Below, one piece after another: positions 6,700-53,551 of a stretch of DNA of 57,804 nt. Both the position numbers and the translations under genes were made by a program. This DNA is from Patescibacteria group bacterium. GTDB taxonomy: Bacteria > Patescibacteriota > Minisyncoccia > Phycocordibacterales > UBA12079. How positions within the stretch are numbered: the stretch's first letter is position 1; each line of letters opens with the position of its first letter. The notes under the pieces are model-generated. The model did no database searches. It was given only the letters and a program-made list of their open reading frames with translations, and was not told the DNA's origin. The stretch spans positions 1-57,804 of the forward strand of contig JAYEKM010000029.1 in NCBI GenBank assembly GCA_034661035.1, written 5' to 3'.

Positions 6700-7245
6700 T
6701 TATTTTAACCAATATGTCTTAATACTCATATTATGCTTATAGACATTATCAAGTGAAGTCTTTAGAGTGTAGTCAATAACATCGACTATCCTTAAACTAT
6801 TACCTAAATCGTCCATAAAACTCACAAAGTCTTCATATGAGGCTTCAACTGTAAAGGTTAGCCCAATAGAACCATACCCGTCTAGATTAGGACCTAAATC
6901 ATTCACTTGGTCACCTTCATTAATTTCTGTATCTACTTCAACACTTCTAATCATGCAACCATTCTTTACGGCAATCTGATTTATCTCCATAATGAGTCTA
7001 ACATTATCAACATTATTCGGTAAAAGCTTCTCAAGTCGATTAACATTCACTTTAGTGAAAGTATTATATTTAACCAAAAGCTGTTGTCTTATCTCCCTTA
7101 GTTCTTTAGACTTAGTTAAAGCATTATCATATTCTGTTTGTTCCTCCTTTAATACACTCGTCTCCGTATAAGCAGGATCAATATAGGAAAAGAATAACCC
7201 TCCCGCTAAAATTATGAAAAAAATTGGAATTATAAATTTAAACAT
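6700..7245 (-). CDS. PilO-like pilus assembly protein
   Basis: 181 aa, N-terminal TM followed by a coiled coil and then an alpha/beta domain. Position after the PilN-like gene. Confidence 0.55.
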   Translation of the reverse strand: MFKFIIPIFFIILAGGLFFSYIDPAYTETSVLKEEQTEYDNALTKSKELREIRQQLLVKYNTFTKVNVNRLEKLLPNNVDNVRLIMEINQIAVKNGCMIRSVEVDTEINEGDQVNDLGPNLDGYGSIGLTFTVEASYEDFVSFMDDLGNSLRIVDVIDYTLKTSLDNVYKHNMSIKTYWLK

Positions 7246-11711: not shown

Positions 11712-12800
11712 TCTGATACAATTTACCTATGAAAACTTTAAGCAAAAGACAAGTGATAATATTGGAATTTATAAAAAAGAACGGCAAAGCCAGTATTGGG
11801 GAGATTTATGGTTTTGTTAAGGAAGATTTTGAGGTAGATCAAAGAACAATCTCTAGAGATATTAAATTTATTTTAGATAAAAAATTGATATCTCAGACAG
11901 GGGCAGGACGAAATGTCTCTTACTTTATTTCTAGCCAAAATAAAATCTTAAAAGAAATTGATGTAGAAAAATATTTTTCTATTCCTTTTGATGAAAGAGA
12001 AGTTAAAACCAATTTTAATTTTGATATTTTTAATATTTTAAAAGAAGATATTTTTTCAGAAGAAGAACAAGAAAAACTTTTACAATTACACAATGATTTT
12101 TTAAATAATTTTTCTAAATATGACAGTCAAACACTTCTCAATAAGGAGTTTGAGAGGATTTTAATAGAATTTTCTTGGAAATCTTCACAAATTGAGGGTA
12201 ATACCTATTCACTTCTTAATACTGAACAACTTATTAAAGATAATAAGCCTGATAGTCAGAAAACAAAAGAGGAAACCCAAATGATATTAAATCACAAGGA
12301 TGCTTTTAATAAATCTTTACAAAATAAAGATGTTTTTGTTAAATTAACTCGCTCTAATATTGAACATATTCATCATCTTTTGACAAAAGACTTAAATATC
12401 TCTAAAAATATTAGAAAATCTCCTGTTGGGATAACAGGAACAAATTATAAACCTCTTGATAATGCCCACCAAATAGAAGAAGCTTTAGATAAGATGATAA
12501 AATTAATTAACAATAAAGAAAACTTTTTTGAAAAAGCTTTTTTGTCTTTGATATTACTTTCATATATTCAAGCCTTTGAAGATGGAAATAAGCGAACAGC
12601 TAGAATGATAGCCAATGCAATTCTGTTGTCATACAGATCTATTCCTATGTCATATAGAGCAGTAGACGAAGTAGAATATAAAAAAGCCTCTTTATTGTTT
12701 TATGAAATCAATAACCTAAATTATTTTAAAGAAATCTTTTTAAAACAATTTGAATTTGCCGTAGAAAATTATTTTAAATAAACAATAATACGATTTTCTC
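11584..12800 (+). mobile_element. Possible inserted HTH-Fic gene cassette bracketed by ~50-nt direct repeats
   Basis: Operator array plus the Fic ORF lie exactly between the two direct repeats. The right repeat is the immediate upstream region of tRNA-Ser. Confidence 0.35.
11729..12781 (+). CDS. Fic/DOC family protein with N-terminal winged-helix DNA-binding domain and degenerate active-site motif
   Basis: N-terminal DeoR-like HTH (RQVIILEFIKKNGKASIGEI...RTISRDIKFI). Inhibitory-helix motif SSQIEG. Fic motif region reads QAFEDGNKRTAR instead of HxFx(D/E)GNGRxxR. Confidence 0.8.
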   Translation: MKTLSKRQVIILEFIKKNGKASIGEIYGFVKEDFEVDQRTISRDIKFILDKKLISQTGAGRNVSYFISSQNKILKEIDVEKYFSIPFDEREVKTNFNFDIFNILKEDIFSEEEQEKLLQLHNDFLNNFSKYDSQTLLNKEFERILIEFSWKSSQIEGNTYSLLNTEQLIKDNKPDSQKTKEETQMILNHKDAFNKSLQNKDVFVKLTRSNIEHIHHLLTKDLNISKNIRKSPVGITGTNYKPLDNAHQIEEALDKMIKLINNKENFFEKAFLSLILLSYIQAFEDGNKRTARMIANAILLSYRSIPMSYRAVDEVEYKKASLLFYEINNLNYFKEIFLKQFEFAVENYFK

Positions 12801-12872: not shown

Positions 12873-12959
12873 GGAGAGTTGGCTGAGTGGTTTAAAGCGC
12901 GCCCCTGCTAAGGGTGTTGGGAGGAAACTCCCTCGAGGGTTCGAATCCCTCACTCTCCG
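12873..12959 (+). tRNA. tRNA-Ser(GCU)
   Basis: Acceptor GGAGAGT/ACTCTCC, anticodon loop CTGCTAA, long variable arm GGGAG-gaaa-CTCCC, T-arm GAGGG-TTCGAAT-CCCTC, discriminator G. No encoded CCA. Confidence 0.9.
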
Positions 12960-13013
12960 CATTGGTAATTTTAAATAGCGACTGAGCTATTCAAAATTGA
13001 CAACATAAGGATA

Positions 13014-17115: not shown

Positions 17116-17175
17116 TTCAAAATTGCGAAAAAAGCCATTTTGAGATAGTATTCTAGTTATAAGATCATAAATTTT

Positions 17176-17399
17176 GCGTGTGTAGCTCAGTTGGTAGAGC
17201 GCAGAGCTTATAATTTCAAGTGAGGATAATTAGAAATTTGTGTGGGCGTATAGCTCAGTTGGTAGAGCGCAGAGCTTATACCTCTGTGGTCCCAGGTTCA
17301 AGTCCTGGTACGCCCACACATATTTTTAGTTTATCCGAACGCAGGAATTATATCGTAGATATACCTCTGTGGTCCCAGGTTCGAGTCCTGGCACACGCA
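17176..17399 (+). tRNA. tRNA-Ile(UAU)-like gene interrupted in the anticodon loop by a 151-nt insert that contains another tRNA
   Basis: 5' half 17176-17212: GCGTGTG TA GCTC AGTTGGTA GAGC G CAGAG CTTATA. 3' half 17364-17399: C CTCTG TGGTC CCAGG TTCGAGT CCTGG CACACGC A. All stems are complementary. The junction is ambiguous within the repeated ATA. Confidence 0.55.
17244..17316 (+). tRNA. tRNA-Ile(UAU)
   Basis: 73-nt cloverleaf: acceptor GGGCGTA/TACGCCC, D-arm GCTC-AGTTGGTA-GAGC, anticodon arm CAGAG-CTTATAC-CTCTG, T-arm CCAGG-TTCAAGT-CCTGG, discriminator A. Confidence 0.85.
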
Positions 17400-17414
17400 C
17401 AAATATAAACTTTT

Positions 17415-21038: not shown

Positions 21039-21276
21039 TACTTCGCTTTCCGCTACGCTACAAGCTTCGTAGTGCAGGCACAATAGATCACTTATTTTAA
21101 GTGATTTTTTGTTTGGCGAAGTAGTGTCCTCTGTAGCTTTATGCGAAAGAGGGCTATTACTTCGCTTTCCGCTACGCTACAAGCTTCGTAGTGCAGGCAC
21201 AATAGATCACTTATTTTAAGTGATTTTTTGTTTGGCGAAGTAGTGTCCTCTGTAGCTTTATGCGAAAGAGGGCTAT
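21039..21276 (+). repeat. Two identical tandem copies of a 119-bp unit
   Basis: The unit starting tacttcgctttccgctacgctacaagcttcg... repeats with period 119 (cttcgc at 21041 and 21160). Each copy contains the terminator-like hairpin ATCACTTA-ttt-TAAGTGAT plus a T-run. Confidence 0.85.
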
Positions 21277-21286
21277 AATATTTAAT

Positions 21287-21526
21287 ATGCACTATGTTTA
21301 TATTTTAAAAAGTCAAAAAGATAACAGTCATTATATTGGTAGTTCCTCTAACCTGAAAAATCGGATAATTGCTCACAACCAAAACACAGTGAAATCTACA
21401 AAAGCAAAAACTCCCTATATAATAAAATGGTACTGTGCATTTCCTACCAAAGAAAAAGCTTTAATTTTTGAAAAATATTTAAAAACAGGCTCTGGTATAG
21501 CTTTTTATAGAAAACGATTTTTATAA
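21287..21526 (+). CDS. Stand-alone GIY-YIG nuclease domain protein
   Basis: MHYVYILKSQKDNSHYIGSSSNLKNRIIAHN... matches the GIY-YIG pattern (YVYIL...YIGSS...R...H). The ORF-track start 21260 lies inside the repeat; ATG 21287 follows a TATAAT. Confidence 0.8.
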   Translation: MHYVYILKSQKDNSHYIGSSSNLKNRIIAHNQNTVKSTKAKTPYIIKWYCAFPTKEKALIFEKYLKTGSGIAFYRKRFL

Positions 21527-29014: not shown

Positions 29015-30463
29015 TCAAGGAACCTGAATAATTTTTACTTCCGAAAGACCTCCATATCCATATCGGTTATAACCTTGAACAGCAACGTAATACATTGCTC
29101 CGTGAGGCAAAACAAAAGACGCAGTTGTCTGTTGTTTGTCAAAAAAAATTTGATAGACATCCTTTTCTTCCTCGTTTAAAAAAGGAGTAAGAGAATAACA
29201 AAGAATATAACCCTCCGTGTCCGATGTTAACCAACCTAAATTGACAACTTGACCCTCAATATCAATATCCAGAGAGGGAAAACCAGGAGGACCCTTCAAC
29301 GGATGAATATCAACAACCATCGAAACATATTTGTTCTTTGTGTCGTCCCACTCCCAGAAAGAATCAAAAGATTCGACGGTATACCATCCATCAGAGGAAC
29401 CACCCCAACCAAAATTAAAGTGAACTTGATCCATCCCATCTACAGACCAATATCCGTCAGCGACATAAGCATGCCTATCCGATGAAAAAAAGACAGGTTG
29501 TCTTTTATTGATTTGTTCCTGAATTATCGGGAAAAAATTATCACGATAACTTATTATATCGTGAAGATCGTCGCTGTAACCTAAATACTCTGGAAGTCCA
29601 GCAACCAAACCAGCATAAAAACCAGAACTCTCTGTAGAGGAATAACATGTTTTCGCAAGAACTCCAACATCAGCCATTAACCGAGCGACTGCATCATTTT
29701 CTGGTGAGGGTTGTCCCTCAAACCAAGAATAAGAATCTATCATCAAGTTCCAGTAATATTCGTGAGAAAAATCTGCACAGATATATTGGTTTGTTCCACA
29801 ACTGATAGAACCAGAAAAATAATCATCGTAACATTTAGAACCAGAACCTACCTTTGGCCACTCCCAATATTTGAGAATCTGAGCAATGGCAGTTGCTACA
29901 CAACCTGTTACGGACCTTTCCCCGTTATTATCCAACGGACAGTAGTTGTTATAAGGAGTCTGTTGACTCCACGTTGTCTTCAATAAAGGACCAACCATTC
30001 CGCTAATAATATCATCAGTGGTAACAAAAGACCTTTTCTCAAGAAGTGTCCAAGCTTTATTGACCTGAAGGACTTGTTTTTTATTTGAAAGAGTGTGGAC
30101 AATAAATTTTGCTTGTCGGACAAGACTCTCAATAACCATAACCCCCATATCCATGGCAAGTTCAGAATTACTACTAAAACTTCCATCTTTACTCCAGGCT
30201 TTAATAGGTTCAAAGAGATCTTCCGTAGGAACAACTACAAAACCTCCACCAGAAAAATTAAATAGATAACCAATTGATTTACCCTTCTCGTCTTGAAGGA
30301 TTATTCCTTCATTAACAATTTTGTCTTCTCCGACTCGTTGCATCCATAACTCAGCTATAAGCCGAGCTTGCTGTAAAGAAACAAATTGAGCCTCTGATAT
30401 AGCAGCAACAGGAAATAAAAAAATAATCAATAGCAACGAAATTATCTTAACCTTTTCCATCAT
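29015..30463 (-). CDS. Secreted cysteine protease, peptidase family C10 (streptopain-like), with pro-region and C-terminal Fn3-like domain
   Basis: Signal peptide. Conserved block TTWSQQTPYNNYCP...VTGCVATAIAQILKYW (catalytic Cys). HAYVADGY (catalytic His). HFNFGWGG. The RBS AAAGGAG precedes ATG 30463/30460. Confidence 0.8.
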   Translation of the reverse strand: MMEKVKIISLLLIIFLFPVAAISEAQFVSLQQARLIAELWMQRVGEDKIVNEGIILQDEKGKSIGYLFNFSGGGFVVVPTEDLFEPIKAWSKDGSFSSNSELAMDMGVMVIESLVRQAKFIVHTLSNKKQVLQVNKAWTLLEKRSFVTTDDIISGMVGPLLKTTWSQQTPYNNYCPLDNNGERSVTGCVATAIAQILKYWEWPKVGSGSKCYDDYFSGSISCGTNQYICADFSHEYYWNLMIDSYSWFEGQPSPENDAVARLMADVGVLAKTCYSSTESSGFYAGLVAGLPEYLGYSDDLHDIISYRDNFFPIIQEQINKRQPVFFSSDRHAYVADGYWSVDGMDQVHFNFGWGGSSDGWYTVESFDSFWEWDDTKNKYVSMVVDIHPLKGPPGFPSLDIDIEGQVVNLGWLTSDTEGYILCYSLTPFLNEEEKDVYQIFFDKQQTTASFVLPHGAMYYVAVQGYNRYGYGGLSEVKIIQVP

Positions 30464-30610
30464 TGCATCTCCTTTCATTCGTAAAAGCTGAGAATTAATT
30501 TATACAAAAATATCAAAGTACAATACTTCTACATAGAATAGTATGGATAAAGATAAATTTTGTCAATAGATCGTTATGGTTCAATACCTATGCAACACTT
30601 TAATCGTGCA

Positions 30611-30705
30611 GGATTAAAAACTTAAGACATTGGCCTAGTAAAAAACACACTCCCGAAGAACTCTTAGGTACATTAGTAAAGATAAAAAATAAAAAGACCG
30701 TATAA
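30611..30705 (+). pseudogene. Relic of a HIT-gene 3' end
   Basis: ggattaaaa + 8-nt insert + cattggcctagtaaaaaa reproduces 28866-28892 of the intact HIT gene (an 18-nt exact run). The frame reads HWPSKKHTPEELLGTLVKIKNKKTV*, versus HWPSKKITNIELEKIRNKLF* in the intact gene. Confidence 0.7.
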
Positions 30706-30725
30706 GCAAAAAGCAAATACGGTCT
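30684..30725 (-). terminator. Terminator after the second C10 protease gene
   Basis: AGACCGTAT/ATACGGTCT stem followed on the minus strand by a long U-run. Confidence 0.6.
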
Positions 30726-30758
30726 TTAAAATTACATAGATCATTTTTAAACCTCATA

Positions 30759-32222
30759 TCAACGGATCTCGAAAAGTCCGATATTGGAGTATTCACTACC
30801 TCCAATTAAATTATATGCCTGTATTGCGACAAAATAACTAGCACCAACCCAAAGATTGGCAGACATGGATGTTTGACTACCCCAATCAACCGTCACTATT
30901 GAACCAGGTCCTGTATAAGGAGCTGGTGCGTAAGAAAATAAATAACCAGTGGCTCCCGTCACGGGTTGCCACGAACAGTTAACGATAGTTCCATTGACGA
31001 CCACCTCCAACACCGGGGAATCAGGGGCACTATCAGCTGTTATAAAGTCAGGATAAATGTTGATTATCATCGTCACCCGACTAGAACTGTCATACGAAGC
31101 TCCCCAGAATTCATTTAATCCTTCAATTGTGTACCATCCATCCGATGAACCATCCCAACCAAAATTAAAATGAGTTTGATTCATACCAAGATCTTCCCGA
31201 AAACCATCAGCAACGTAAGCATGGTTACTAGAGCAAAAAAACACAGGGTAGCCTTTGTCTAGCTGATTCTTAATAGTTGAATAAGAACTACTCCAGGATT
31301 CATAAACTATCTCCACTTCATCACTATAACCCAAGTAGGTAGAAAAATCGTCCTCGTAAGGAAATGCTCCACTTCCAGAAGAGGAGTAATTAGTTTCAAA
31401 GATAATTCCTAAATCAGACATCAACGTGGCAACGGTATCAATTTCCTCGGCAGGCGAAGATTCCGTAAGGATATCTGGCATTTTATTCCAATTATAAACA
31501 TGCTCAAAATCAGCACATAAAGTCACTTCCGGATTATTAAGACAATCATAATTAGAACAATAAGAATAGCATTTACTTCCTGTTCCAGCTTCCGGCCATC
31601 TCCAATACCTTAATATCTGAGCCATGGCTGTACTTGTACATCCAGTGACAGAAAGTTCGCCATTGTCATTGTCTATAGGACAATAAGCGTTGTAAGGTTC
31701 ACGTTGTCCCCAAGTAGTTGTCAACAACGGACCAACAACCTGAGAACTTTCTTGCGCCCTTACCTCTCCTGGAGACAAAATCCGTCTCCACCCTTCATGG
31801 GCGTCTGTCAGGCTACTTTGGTAATTCGCCGAAGAAGCCCTTACGGTAACGAGAAAATGTTTTTGTCGTAGGAAACTTTTTTTAACCATAGTTTCCATGT
31901 CCATAGACCGCGAAGGGTCACCACGAAAGTGTCCCCTTCTACTCCAAGCCTTAACGGGTTCGAAAGTATCGTCCATAGGAACAACCACAAACCCTCCGCC
32001 AGAGAAACTGAACAGATAACCGATTGAGTTGCCCTCATTTTGAAGGGTTCTTCCTTCATCAACAACCCTATCTTCTCCAACCCTTTCCATCCAGTTTTCA
32101 GCCACAACCTGAGCCGTCTCAAAAGAAACAGGGGCAGCATTTACTGAACCAAAGTTAGAGAAAACAAAGAACATCGCAACAACCAGAACTACGAAAAAAC
32201 TACAACGTTTTGTCACTTCCAT
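30759..32222 (-). CDS. Secreted cysteine protease, peptidase family C10 (second, diverged paralog)
   Basis: Same blocks as the first: TTWGQREPYNAYCP...VTGCTSTAMAQILRYW, HAYVADGF, HFNFGWDG. C-terminal Fn3-like domain (GATGY). GGAGG lies 8 nt upstream of ATG 32222. The longer ORF-track start 32297 lacks an RBS. Confidence 0.8.
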   Translation of the reverse strand: MEVTKRCSFFVVLVVAMFFVFSNFGSVNAAPVSFETAQVVAENWMERVGEDRVVDEGRTLQNEGNSIGYLFSFSGGGFVVVPMDDTFEPVKAWSRRGHFRGDPSRSMDMETMVKKSFLRQKHFLVTVRASSANYQSSLTDAHEGWRRILSPGEVRAQESSQVVGPLLTTTWGQREPYNAYCPIDNDNGELSVTGCTSTAMAQILRYWRWPEAGTGSKCYSYCSNYDCLNNPEVTLCADFEHVYNWNKMPDILTESSPAEEIDTVATLMSDLGIIFETNYSSSGSGAFPYEDDFSTYLGYSDEVEIVYESWSSSYSTIKNQLDKGYPVFFCSSNHAYVADGFREDLGMNQTHFNFGWDGSSDGWYTIEGLNEFWGASYDSSSRVTMIINIYPDFITADSAPDSPVLEVVVNGTIVNCSWQPVTGATGYLFSYAPAPYTGPGSIVTVDWGSQTSMSANLWVGASYFVAIQAYNLIGGSEYSNIGLFEIR

Positions 32223-32357
32223 TTTTATTACCTCCTTTTTTAAATTGTAAGGCTCAAGACCTTTTATTTTAGGTTTAAAATTATATGTAATTCTCAAAGA
32301 ACTACACTCCTATAAAAAGGATAGGATTAAACAAGAAAATTGTCAAGTGTATGAAGT

Positions 32358-50985: not shown

Positions 50986-52515
50986 ATGTCGTTAAAAACA
51001 GTTATATTCCTGATAGGAATATTTAGTCTTGGTGGAGCCACTATTGGTTATTTTCTGCGATGGGCACTTACCTTCGGTAAACAAGGTTCAGCTGAACTAA
51101 AAATAAAAAAAATGCTTTTAGACGCTCAAGAGAGTGCTAAAAATATCGTCTCAAAGGCAGAAAACAAATCTATATTGATCCTAGAAGATGTTAAAAAGGA
51201 AAAGAAGGAAAAGGAAGATCAAATCAGAAAAGCTGAAGAGCGACTAGTAAAGAAAGAAGATCTCTTAGATAGTCGTCAAATAGAAATAGATTCTGGAGCA
51301 AAAAATATAGAAGGTAAAATCAAAAAAGTTGAAGATATAAAAAAGGAAATTGAAAGTATAAAAGAAAACGAAATAGAGAACTTAAAAAAAATAGCTGGTC
51401 TTAATAAAGAAGAAGCTGAAACAAAACTTCTGCAGATAGTTGAAAAAGAATATGAAGAAGATTTAACCGTCAAAATGCAGAAGCTAGAAAGAGACGGCGA
51501 AGAAAAATTAGAAGAAAGGGCTAAAGATATTTTAATAACAGCCATTCATCGTATGGGTAATTCTGTGGCAGCTGACGTACTTTCAACTACTGTCACGATT
51601 CCCTCCGATGACATTAAAGGTAAAATTATTGGTAAGGAAGGTAAAAACATCCGCGCTTTTGAGAGAGTCACTGGAACAGAGATAATTGTTGATGATACGC
51701 CAGGCTCTATTACAATTTCATCTTTTGACCCTGTTAGAAGACAAGTAGCTAGAACTGCTTTAGAAAACCTAATTATAGATGGAAGAATTCAACCTGCCAA
51801 AATTGAAGAGTTTGTTGAAAAAGCTAGAGAAGAAATTAACAAAACTATTAAGAAAAAAGGTGAACAGGCTGTCTACGAGTGTGGTATTTTAAATCTAGAC
51901 CCAAGGATAGTTTCTATTCTAGGAAGACTTTACTTCCGAACAAGTTATGGACAAAATGTTCTACAACACTCAATTGAAATGTCACACATCGCTGGTATGT
52001 TAGCAGAAGAACTGAAAGCTGATGTAGCGGTGGCCAAAGCAGGAGCTCTTCTCCATGACATCGGAAAAGCTGTTGATCATGAAATTCAAGGAACTCATGT
52101 CGAAATAGGGAAAAGAATTCTACAAAAATTTGGGGCTGATGAAAAAATTATTAAAGCCATGCAATCACATCATGAAGAGCACCCTTATGAAAGTATTGAG
52201 TCAATCATCGTTCAGGTTGCCGATTCTATTTCAGGTAGTCGCCCTGGTGCAAGAAGAGATACTGTTGAAAATTATTTAAAGAGATTAACAGAACTAGAAA
52301 GTATTGCGAATTCATTTGAAGGTGTTGGAAAATCCTATGCTTTACAGGCAGGAAGAGAAATAAGAGTCTTAGTCACACCAGAAAATGTCTCTGACATTGA
52401 AGCAAAGAAGTTAGCTAGAAATATTGCTACAAAAATTGAGAAAGAGTTGAAGTACCCTGGAGAAATCAAGGTTAATGTCGTCAGAGAAACCCGAGTAATT
52501 GAATACGCGAGATAA
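50986..52515 (+). CDS. rny: Ribonuclease Y
   Basis: N-terminal TM, long coiled coil, KH domain (GKIIGKEGKNIR) and HD domain (LLHDIGKA). Confidence 0.9.
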   Translation: MSLKTVIFLIGIFSLGGATIGYFLRWALTFGKQGSAELKIKKMLLDAQESAKNIVSKAENKSILILEDVKKEKKEKEDQIRKAEERLVKKEDLLDSRQIEIDSGAKNIEGKIKKVEDIKKEIESIKENEIENLKKIAGLNKEEAETKLLQIVEKEYEEDLTVKMQKLERDGEEKLEERAKDILITAIHRMGNSVAADVLSTTVTIPSDDIKGKIIGKEGKNIRAFERVTGTEIIVDDTPGSITISSFDPVRRQVARTALENLIIDGRIQPAKIEEFVEKAREEINKTIKKKGEQAVYECGILNLDPRIVSILGRLYFRTSYGQNVLQHSIEMSHIAGMLAEELKADVAVAKAGALLHDIGKAVDHEIQGTHVEIGKRILQKFGADEKIIKAMQSHHEEHPYESIESIIVQVADSISGSRPGARRDTVENYLKRLTELESIANSFEGVGKSYALQAGREIRVLVTPENVSDIEAKKLARNIATKIEKELKYPGEIKVNVVRETRVIEYAR

Positions 52516-52526
52516 TTAAAGAAGGA

Positions 52527-52585
52527 CTTGCCCCGTTAGAGGTTACGGAAGCCTCTGGCTCCCTACCTCTAACGGGGCTTGCACA
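52527..52585 (+). terminator. Long GC-rich hairpin after rny (atypical terminator or protective 3' stem)
   Basis: Perfect 13-bp CCCCGTTAGAGGT/ACCTCTAACGGGG extended by GGAAGCC/GGCTCC. It is followed by A-rich, not U-rich, sequence. Confidence 0.35.
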
Positions 52586-52773
52586 AAAAAAGGCTTAATA
52601 TATAATGTATTTATTATTAGTTTTTAGAATTTTTAATAAAAGGTCGCTCTTATTAAAATTATTATATGCTGCAAGCATATAATTACATCGTTCGGATTAT
52701 ATAAAAATAAATATTAATATAATTTATCCTTATAAATCCTTACTTGAAATTATAAGATAATTTAATTTTTATT

Positions 52774-53052
52774 ATGAATAAACAAGCAATTATTGAATTA
52801 GTTCACGAAACTTTAGATGGAACGAAGGTTCAAGCAGAAAAAGTAGTAGATACAATTTTTGAAGGTATTACAAATTCACTTAAAAAAGGAGAAGATGTAT
52901 CAATAGCAGGTTTTGGTATCTTCTCAGCTAAAATGAGAGCAGCTAGAACAGCTAGAAATCCTAGAACAGGTGAACCTATTGAAGTTCCAGCTATGAGAGT
53001 TCCTAAATTCAGAGCCTCAAAATCTCTTAAAGACACTGTTAAAAATAGCTAG
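52774..53052 (+). CDS. hup: DNA-binding protein HU
   Basis: 92 aa. GFGIF...R.ARNPRTGE..EVPA...P.F motif. Confidence 0.9.
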   Translation: MNKQAIIELVHETLDGTKVQAEKVVDTIFEGITNSLKKGEDVSIAGFGIFSAKMRAARTARNPRTGEPIEVPAMRVPKFRASKSLKDTVKNS

Positions 53053-53251: not shown

Positions 53252-53551
53252 CTAAATTTCGTTTTAAATTATGTTCTACTTATATATACTTGGTAGCCAA
53301 AAAGATAAAAATATCTATATTGGTTCAACAAACAACCTAATAAAAAGATTTAAAGAACATAATTCTGGAAAAGTCTCCTCTACAAAATCTAGGGTTCCTT
53401 TTGAATTACTTTATTATGAATCATATAGAACAGAACAAGAAGCTCACAACAGAGAATCTGCTCTAAAACTAAGAGGTCAAGCCCGTGTACAACTTTTAAA
53501 AAGAATAGGCTCAACAATGAAACTTTTCCTAAACGAAAATTAGTGTGCGGA
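53252..53551 (+). mobile_element. ORF-sized GIY-YIG cassette flanked by 12-bp direct repeats of the tRNA-Gly 3' end
   Basis: CCTATCCGCACA occurs at 53240-53251 (tRNA 3' end) and again at 53552-53563. The 300-bp interval contains only the 273-bp GIY-YIG ORF. Confidence 0.45.
53271..53543 (+). CDS. Stand-alone GIY-YIG nuclease domain protein
   Basis: MFYLYILGSQKDKNIYIGSTNNLIKRFKEHN...E...R (GIY-YIG pattern). Paralog of 21287-21526. Confidence 0.8.
   Translation: MFYLYILGSQKDKNIYIGSTNNLIKRFKEHNSGKVSSTKSRVPFELLYYESYRTEQEAHNRESALKLRGQARVQLLKRIGSTMKLFLNEN

Follow-up and report, generated by a model that had tools for sequence, protein, structure and literature searches.

Genes for transfer RNA (tRNA) are the target of integrative elements such as temperate phages, integrative and conjugative elements and genomic islands, which often enter at the anticodon loop, bring along tRNA sequence so that the host keeps a working tRNA, and leave the displaced fragments behind as scars. 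In bacteria, group I introns are the only kind of interrupted tRNA gene in a published review table, from which a nested type is absent (PMC4033280); in archaea, bulge-helix-bulge (BHB) introns, transposition among tRNAs in the Thermoproteales, and split or tri-split tRNAs have been described (PMC10714607, PMC4033280). Here, we describe a locus on a 57,804-nt contig of a Patescibacteria group bacterium (GenBank assembly GCA_034661035.1, contig JAYEKM010000029.1; this whole stretch is called the window in the following), where a complete gene for tRNA-Ile(UAU) is nested inside the anticodon loop of a second one (Table 1). We found no relevant description in the literature on nested tRNAs or tRNA introns in the Candidate Phyla Radiation (CPR) or Patescibacteria, and such tRNA-in-tRNA nests appear to be undescribed. 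The insert is probably a mobile element, acting on the DNA level, that enters at TT^ATA (the caret marks the insertion point) and carries a replacement tRNA-Ile, with the outer halves as remains of the disrupted resident gene. The lines of evidence that we obtained are the nested anatomy, a structure that covaries on one strand, copies of the element without a tRNA, their TT^ATA flanks, the polymorphism between filled and empty sites, and the succession of layers.

When the two outer halves are joined in silico, they yield a 73-nt sequence that ARAGORN recognizes as tRNA-Ile(tat), with seven of seven acceptor pairs and five of five anticodon-stem pairs. Each half is also matched on its own by a profile made from the corresponding halves of related tRNA-Ile genes, with E=3.6e-11 on the 5' side and E=1.5e-9 on the 3' side. 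The inner gene scores 75 bits against Rfam RF00005, for which the cut-off is 29, qualifies as a tRNA gene and is presumed to be a working one; as in all related loci, CCA is not encoded at its 3' end, C74 alone being present. A sequence-only reading of the window had already described this nest of two halves around a tRNA, and its coordinates and sequences agree with the results from ARAGORN, Rfam and the half profiles. It had also counted a single T-loop difference between the inner and the outer gene, which our alignment confirms (positions 8-65 are otherwise identical), and five differing acceptor pairs, which the alignment reduces to three (pairs 2, 4 and 7). The 12-bp extended acceptor helix that it had drawn for the inner tRNA exists as well, as part of a longer helix between leader and trailer. 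Likewise, the junction is indeed ambiguous within a repeated ATA/TATA, by 3-4 nt, and relatives favor the register 17210-17360 (CTT^ATAC); within this ambiguity, the insert occupies the canonical intron site 37/38 of the anticodon loop. The region of the whole nest folds at -95 kcal/mol (z = -8.0 against shuffles). Run in intron mode on this region, a check proposed in the same reading, ARAGORN reports the inner gene alone and does not call the outer halves; the same mode likewise returns inner genes alone in the 80 species-representative genome loci that we compared (L001-L080).

Table 1. Features of the nested tRNA-Ile(UAU) locus and of a further element copy in the window.
Feature	Position	Strand	Details
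Promoter-like site	17140..17168	+	TTGAGA-17-GATCAT; weak consensus match, 8 nt upstream of outer 5' half
Outer tRNA-Ile(UAU), 5' half, positions 1-37	17176..17212	+	GCGTGTG-T-AGCTCAGTTGGTAGAGC-G-CAGAG-CTTATA; acceptor GCGTGTG, D-arm, anticodon stem CAGAG, loop CTTATA
Element 5' arm	17209..17229	+	P1 5' strand TATAATTTC 17209-17217; P2 5' strand GGATAA 17224-17229
Insert (structured element and cargo tRNA), 151 nt	17213..17363	+	between the outer halves
Loop AA, 2-bp helix strand GT, tandem-G.A strand GA	17218-17223	+	within element 5' arm
Leader	17230..17243	+	pairs with trailer and lengthens inner acceptor helix, T(-1) with A73 included
Inner uninterrupted tRNA-Ile(UAU)	17244..17316	+	ARAGORN; acceptor GGGCGTA/TACGCCC
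Element 3' arm	17317..17363	+	trailer 17317-17329; P2 3' strand TTATCC 17331-17336; GA-AC-GCA 17337-17343
P1 3' strand	17344-17352	+	GGAATTATA; in element 3' arm
P3 hairpin	17349-17363	+	TATATC-GTA-GATATA; touches 3' junction
Outer tRNA-Ile(UAU), 3' half, positions 38-73	17364..17399	+	C-CTCTG-TGGTC-CCAGG-TTCGAGT-CCTGG-CACACGC-A; CCTCTG, T-arm, acceptor CACACGC, A73
tRNA-less element copy	52674..52756	-	R1 40.8 bits, E=4e-6 with default filters, 3e-7 with filters off

This architecture recurs. L001, L002, L082, L101, L123 and L127 contain the same element and share its inner acceptor (GGGCGTA or GGGCGTG), and these six also keep the outer acceptor GCGTGTG/CACACGC (GTGTGTG in L001), save for the 5' side in L002. 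In the genome set, nests of the same kind are present in L001, L002, L027 (where the contig end cuts the nest), L035 and L078, and related wreckage in L009, L011 and L075. A search for the 3'-junction pattern, in which ATATAY CTCYG... replaces the normal TTATAC, yielded 57 metagenome loci. Metagenome loci, window and genome loci together comprise 42 distinct nests, nearly all of which follow the order 5' half, arm, full tRNA-Ile, arm, 3' half. Since the leader/trailer helix is seen in only about 7 of 46 tRNA-Ile(UAU) genes of the species-representative genomes, the plain gene is the norm and the nests are scattered gains.

Once the tRNA is set aside, all inserts share one fold. Its core of about 85 nt consists of helix P1 (8-9 bp), which starts from or next to A35, an asymmetric 2x3 loop, a 2-bp helix, tandem G.A pairs and helix P2. 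A further hairpin, P3 (TATATN...NATATA), follows the 3' strand of P1 and ends exactly at the 3' junction. At the junctions, anticodon stem, P1 and P3 meet in a three-way arrangement. The cargo tRNA is flanked by 10-15 bp of leader/trailer pairing, N(-1) with A73 included, and is housed either in the apical loop of P2 (the window, L001, L002, L106, L114, L136 and others) or in that of P3 (L035/L107, L086, L097, L109, L112 and others); with two possible cargo positions, the element is therefore a unit separate from the tRNA. In an alignment of 18 contiguous cores, 10 of the 12 scored pairs show compensatory double-sided changes, and the 2-bp helix occurs as GU/AC, GC/GC, AU/AU and AC/GU. Pairing is possible in 94.4% of the cells, compared with 70.4% in column shuffles (none of 500 reached the observed value) and 22-50% with slid partners, and the covariation score is 0.72 against 0.26. 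Because G.U and tandem G.A pairs take part, it is one particular strand that folds, be it as RNA or as single-stranded DNA. Motif scanners written by hand proved either too permissive (786 matches, as opposed to 479 in shuffles) or, in a stricter version, too narrow, and were replaced by a covariance model of the core, R1, which finds the insert of the window at 17207-17356 with 42.5 bits (E=1.5e-6).

The fold does not correspond to any of the structures to which we compared it. Rfam searches, run on the window with gathering scores and on the L035 nest with E<=10, return tRNA, transfer-messenger RNA (tmRNA) and noise, and leave the insert without a family match. In both searches Intron_gpI is unmatched, and the core measures only about 85 nt; the small self-cleaving ribozymes (hammerhead, twister, pistol, hatchet, hairpin and HDV-like) find no match at E<=10 in the L035 nest. 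Compared by eye with the hammerhead core, the GA-rich loop has a different junction topology, and the positions of C3-U4-G5-A6 read CAAG; a kink-turn was rejected by inspection, as the topology is that of a 2x3 loop, a 2-bp helix and tandem G.A pairs leading into P2. In the junctions and folds that we inspected for a BHB motif (3-4-3), there is no pair of 3-nt bulges 4 bp apart. The ends of the element, ATAATTTC... and ...CGTAGAT, are without terminal inverted repeats, the partner of the left end being internal (the 3' strand of P1), and we rejected a DDE-derived miniature inverted-repeat transposable element on this ground. Likewise, TATAAT at the 5' junction was dismissed as an internal promoter, since the sole -35-like hexamer is only 12 nt away. 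The promoter-like site upstream of the nest may give rise to the transcript with the inner tRNA, although such consensus matches are as frequent in shuffles.

Copies of the element are by no means confined to nests. In the window, a tRNA-less copy lies between the genes for RNase Y (50986-52515) and HU (52774-53052), antisense to both; it is flanked by TCTT^ATA...CAT^ATA, its fold has a z of -4.0, and the GA of its 5' strand is mutated to AA. Further intergenic R1 copies are found in L023, L052, L070, L075, L110 and L136, and weaker, related antisense copies in the D-loop of interrupted 5' halves in L083 (32.5 bits) and L120 (28.3 bits). In L081, L122 and L119, the element has entered another copy of itself at the P1/P3 junction. 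In L009 and L108, a tRNA-less copy interrupts a dead tRNA-Ile that stands beside an intact one; L126 possibly presents the same picture, although the stretch examined shows no intact copy. The element is thus found in either orientation at other sites and is common there without a tRNA, and the tRNA-Ile site is a clear hot target. It is this occurrence outside tRNA genes that leads us to prefer a mobile element.

Nearly all copies that we read are flanked by TT on the left and ATA on the right. The preference for tRNA-Ile(UAU) follows from this target, because TTATA occurs in a tRNA only as U33-A37 of tRNA-Ile(UAU). In many nests, the left-side positions 35-37 read ACA, ACT, ATG and the like instead of ATA; these variants are matched by changes in P1, and CTT on the left and ATAC on the right remain constant. 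For this reason, the insertion point is best set at T34^A35, and the left-side bases 35-37 are best placed with the element or with a duplicated target. The ATA/TATA repeat at the junction is equally compatible with a target duplication of 3-4 bp. Close to the tRNA-less copy of the window, just downstream of the RNase Y gene, AT-rich surroundings also contain a G+C-rich hairpin that is long and nearly perfect, GCCCCGTTAGAGGT...ACCTCTAACGGGGC (52540-52600, read on the - strand), which may be a terminator or another repeat element.

Filled and empty versions of the same site, as well as nests within nests, attest to the order of events. Once joined, the outer gene of L035/L107 has exactly the sequence that is found uninterrupted in L032, L063 and L077, and it differs from its own cargo at three positions. 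In L081, a tRNA beginning with CCGTCCA... is intact and forms the innermost part of a two-layer nest; in L122, from the same metagenome and with the same outer context, this tRNA is itself split by a further element with a new tRNA. Likewise, the outer gene of L121 has the sequence of the inner gene in L120. In L082/L123, the closest relatives of the window (RecG 86-93%, partial matches), the nest of the window is enclosed by a third, truncated layer, and multi-layered nests are also found in L095, L088, L100 and L128. As far as sequence comparison can tell, the filled and empty sites and the three-layer nests show repeated invasion.

The outer copies decay in the process. In L001, the outer anticodon stem has become CGTTG and the loop CTTCTA; the outer copy of L002 has suffered an insertion in the D-loop and a deletion; and L082 and L095 lack the outermost 5' halves or retain only truncated ones. 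Damage to the outer layer is also seen in L009, where a dead tRNA-Ile (~6880-7190, -) next to the intact one carries inserts in the D-loop, in the anticodon loop (a tRNA-less element) and in the T-arm. As a side observation, the D-loop insert of L009 has a homologue in that of the outer 5' half in L002, 6760-6870 (-) (CGTTATYGAGCGAAGCGAGATAGGAAATAGG). The arms of the element, compared with those of the window by eye, are identical at ~72/78 positions in L002 (RecG 72%) and at ~58/78 in L001 (RecG 81%); arm similarity does not track the similarity of RecG or FtsH.

We envisage the following course of events. A small, non-autonomous element, structured as a single strand, would integrate at TT^ATA; the copy in question, with a tRNA-Ile(UAU) in the apical loop of P2, would have split the resident and probably single-copy tRNA-Ile gene into its two halves, and its cargo would have taken over the role of that gene. 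The cargo would be transcribed from the promoter of the resident gene, freed by RNase P and RNase Z and, as CCA is not encoded, completed later by the CCA-adding enzyme. The sequence-only reading had pointed out that such an excision would sever the outer precursor, which fits here and can fairly be inferred. A cargo-less insertion into the sole tRNA-Ile gene would presumably be lethal, so that only cargo-bearing copies would persist at this site. The new tRNA would be a target in turn, the cycle would repeat, and two- and three-layer nests with decaying outer layers would result. Judging by analogy, our best guess for the mobilizer is a single-strand HUH/Y1-type transposase (IS200/IS605- or REP-like, for repetitive extragenic palindromic) that would act in trans; mobilization by nuclease-triggered homing or by gene conversion via DNA uptake is our second choice. 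A Pfam scan of about 21 of the 53 open reading frames (ORFs) in the window detected comEC and type IV pilus genes for DNA uptake, with which spread by recombination would be possible.

Several points weigh against this proposal. Within 2.5 kb of any nest and beside the orphan copies, there is no transposase, integrase or reverse transcriptase, so that it is the distribution alone from which we infer mobility; none of these enzymes is among the scanned ORFs of the window either, and a census of neighboring genes in 38 syntenic loci found no phage gene that recurs near the tRNA-Ile locus. In seven nests the cargo is identical to the resident gene (in one more, it is 1 nt apart), in some cases behind a native-looking promoter, and a simple horizontal arrival does not predict such identity. 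The proposal also gives no account of how a tRNA came to land exactly in an apical loop, and the covarying structure would fit a function as RNA equally well. Moreover, a joint at 34/35 yields a sequence that is still called tRNA-Ile for 28 of 35 outer genes, and L106, L110 and L136 agree to 100% in the inner tRNA and in both outer halves, with arms at 67-85% and random flanks. Outer halves thus often seem better conserved in sequence than a neutral relic should be. We attribute this mainly to recency, in a clade whose members share a single tRNA sequence, and to gene conversion with the inner copy as donor, and regard it as the weakest point of our proposal.

These last observations lend themselves to the best placed of the alternatives, which we nevertheless consider unlikely, namely that the insert acts as a genuine RNA intron, of a type new to bacteria. 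The inner tRNA would be freed by RNase P and RNase Z, and the outer halves, held by P1 and P3, would be trimmed and religated, either self-catalytically or by an endonuclease and an RtcB-type ligase, so that both tRNAs would be functional. Besides the perfect conservation across L106, L110 and L136, this is supported by the insertion at or next to the canonical site 37/38, by strong covariation with G.U and tandem G.A pairs that are meaningful on one strand only, by the full complementarity of the outer acceptor in the window (7/7) despite its difference from the inner one, and by the covariation of the 5'-side bases 35-37 with P1 next to the constant CTT and 3' ATAC, which makes 34/35 the joint that restores tRNA-Ile. 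However, every locus read through retains one uninterrupted innermost tRNA, and among the 57 metagenome and 80 genome loci we saw no tRNA-less copy in a sole tRNA-Ile gene. Outer 5' positions 35-37 are often not ATA, and with a joint at 37/38, about a third of the nests would acquire an anticodon for Val, Arg, Leu or Lys, Val(tac) arising in 10 of the 35 nests with an outer 5' half. The outer halves decay or are hit again, in part by antisense copies beyond the reach of sense-strand splicing; such antisense and tandem insertions are not removable by splicing, and tandem element-element arrangements and three-layer nests would require it to proceed serially. Copies between genes and antisense to neighbors are equally at odds with an intron, as are the failure to find a BHB motif by inspection, the lack of a ribozyme or intron match in Rfam, and the fact that neither RtcB nor EndA is among the scanned ORFs of the window.

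The case of L001 is instructive in this respect. Its outer 3' half reads CTCCG, like its own inner copy, whereas the outer halves of the window, L082 and L002 read CTCTG; because the 5' partner in L001 is already broken, this change points to gene conversion and not to selection for pairing. The sequence-only reading had seen in the locus two distinct tRNA species rather than debris. Our analysis supports the part of this claim that concerns a nest of two complete genes, and the decay and antisense hits speak against the other part, a second working tRNA. From their sequences, the outer halves are better read as a disrupted resident gene than as a split or spliced tRNA.

A related idea ranks next, and we give it little credence as well: the insert could belong to a novel class of tRNA introns in bacteria, with a second tRNA inside and the ability to spread as a mobile intron, so that one transcript would yield two tRNA-Ile(UAU) molecules. 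It is similarly doubtful that pairing of P3 with A35-A37 of the 3' exon would help to keep the outer halves in register, as this variant would have it. Splicing of the outer gene would mean a new bacterial RNA-processing pathway, and the mobile-intron variant would be the first case of bacterial tRNA splicing outside the group I introns, as well as a natural 'tRNA-in-tRNA' operon.

Homing follows, as an improbable third candidate. A site-specific nuclease, such as a small GIY-YIG protein, would cut the tRNA-Ile gene, and repair would copy in a cassette with a replacement tRNA; it is no more probable that the donor would be DNA taken up or a sister copy and that the folded arms would serve as processing signals for the cargo, not as transposition signals. 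Such a process would account for the identity of cargo and resident gene and for the well-conserved outer halves, both of which fit co-conversion, and the ComEC and pilus genes of the window would suit it. In eight of nine cases, moreover, GIY-YIG ORFs lie 6-222 nt from tRNA or tmRNA genes, and in L075 such an ORF and a tRNA-Ile are found between direct repeats of a tRNA 5' fragment. Yet the orphan copies at unrelated TT^ATA sites or within other copies are left unexplained, the 151-nt insert has no nuclease gene, and the GIY-YIG proteins of 82-90 aa consist of the catalytic domain only.

These GIY-YIG ORFs deserve description in their own right. The window has two of the small, GIY-YIG-only kind (82-90 aa), at 21260-21523 (+) and 53271-53468 (+), and relatives have them in L040 (6892-7125), L043 (6382-6603), L075 (6684-6929), L101 (7032-7241) and L127 (4967-5176). 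They are situated after the tmRNA gene, 21 nt after tRNA-Gly(GCC), or 13-18 nt upstream of tRNA-Ile(UAU), and by sequence may be free-standing nucleases tied to tRNA genes. In L075 (6520-7000, -), the ORF and an intact tRNA-Ile are enclosed by two direct repeats, each composed of AGCTCAGTT and, after it, two short REP-like hairpins (TCCGCC-AGA-GGCGGA and CCAGCC-TTT-GGCTGG). This replacement cassette is of another kind and interrupts an older tRNA-Ile in its D-loop; the arrangement suggests nuclease-driven replacement cassettes at the same gene.

It is far less probable that the halves are scars of a phage or island that an integrase inserted and excised (partial duplications of the attL/attR type), or of a local tandem duplication that later suffered a deletion. 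Tyrosine-recombinase elements usually leave additional 3' halves downstream of the intact tRNA, and runs of 3' halves do exist in L087, L108 and L115. The anatomy already contradicts this explanation: the geometry is nested and not tandem, a single crossover cannot yield a nest, the outer acceptor strands match each other and not the inner gene, and the inserts are 100-200 nt long with a conserved structure. Furthermore, the neighbor census found no integrase within 2.5 kb in the ~38 syntenic loci, and a scan of viral contigs for the junction pattern returned zero matches. Finally, an assembly chimera of tandem or strain-variant tRNA copies, a mis-join that the sequence-only reading had also considered, is excluded because the same element with the same inner acceptor stands in independent assemblies, at least six other records in all, with precise junctions and covarying arms; the arrangement is genuine, and the contigs that break inside the nest repeat (L013, L014, L027 and L050) indicate that assemblers find it difficult.

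The surroundings of the nest are those of a chromosome. The window includes recG, ftsH, smpB, the tmRNA gene, type IV pilus genes, comEC, recJ, nusA and the RNase Y gene, and the relatives of its RecG all belong to Patescibacteria (Paceibacterota, Nomurabacteria, Parcubacteria). In 37-38 loci, the tRNA-Ile(UAU) gene is located between recG and ftsH, and this interval is its native chromosomal locus. The nests, too, always occupy the recG-ftsH interval, in Paceibacteria-like Patescibacteria. Compared with the closest relatives L001 (3660-3975), L002 and L082, the whole nest of the window (17116-17414) is inverted between recG and an esterase-like gene, and tRNA-Ile often switches its orientation with respect to recG among the 80 genome loci. 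Throughout the clade, AUA is decoded by this tRNA-Ile with its UAU anticodon and not by the usual lysidine-modified CAU tRNA. Upstream of recG, ARAGORN reports a tRNA-Ser with the anticodon ACU, and hence an unusual A34, beside tRNA-Ser(GCU) in L003, L008, L016, L019, L022, L023 and many others, whereas the window has tRNA-Ser(GCU) only (12873-12960). Two further observations concern proteins encoded in housekeeping surroundings of the window: a Fic/DOC protein fused to a penicillinase-repressor-like domain (11729-12778, +), and two tandem C10 (streptopain-like) peptidases with inhibitor pro-domains (29018-32297, -).

If our proposal is true, these nests represent a strategy of selfish elements in which 85 nt without a protein gene enter an essential single-copy gene by carrying a spare copy of it. 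The host would then depend on the tRNA copy of the element, and repetition would lead to tRNA genes stacked like Russian dolls. This would explain why assemblies break at the tRNA-Ile(UAU) locus of many Patescibacteria, why orientation and acceptor stem change frequently among relatives, and why tRNA finders report the innermost gene alone. The covarying module of tandem G.A pairs, 2-bp helix and 2x3 loop, together with the TT^ATA target, provides handles with which to seek the responsible enzyme.

How, then, does the nest compare with described systems? It shares with the integrative elements introduced above the target and the supply of tRNA sequence to the host. These, however, measure kilobases, encode a tyrosine recombinase, restore only the 3' part of the tRNA and leave the order tRNA, element, 3' fragment, whereas the nest element adds an entire tRNA gene to its own 85 nt or so, lacks a recombinase and leaves both halves outside. 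Group I introns, as found in bacterial tRNA-Leu(UAA), tRNA-fMet and others, resemble it in their anticodon-loop site (around 37/38), their structured arms and their tolerance of extra sequence in peripheral loops; they are at least 200 nt long with P3-P9, while the nest element has a core of about 85 nt, no sign of splicing, and intergenic and antisense copies. Archaeal BHB introns are likewise short and mobile-like, can occupy several sites per tRNA (as seen here in L009) and have complementary sequences beside the tRNA halves. By contrast, our host is a bacterium, with a tmRNA gene and smpB, no BHB motif was apparent by inspection, a complete tRNA lies inside, and EndA and RtcB are not among the scanned ORFs. 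Twintrons and other nested introns share the recursive insertion into their own target, which results in similar layers, yet every layer of the nest consists of a complete gene of the very type that it interrupts, and removal at the RNA level is not indicated.

The palindrome-associated transposable elements (PATEs) derived from IS200/IS605 and the REP elements, which are moved by Y1/HUH enzymes, are similar in being tens of nt long, in having neither a protein gene nor terminal inverted repeats, in their strand-specific hairpins near the ends, in their short and specific insertion sequence, and in their dispersed intergenic copies. In IS608, however, the two ends form separate hairpins, whereas in P1 of the nest element the left end pairs over a long range with an internal strand. 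Furthermore, we saw no transposase near nests or orphan copies, and the ATA/TATA repeat at the junction is indistinguishable from a target duplication. To our knowledge, passenger tRNAs in hairpin loops are no known feature of this family. The nest element thus resembles the IS200/IS605-REP elements, but with no Y1/HUH gene seen and a junction repeat that may be a target duplication, membership cannot be claimed. In its logic, it is closest to the integrative elements that restore the tRNA gene they split, and in its form, to the miniature hairpin elements; what makes it distinct from both is a whole replacement gene within an 85-nt element without a protein, combined with recursive nesting.

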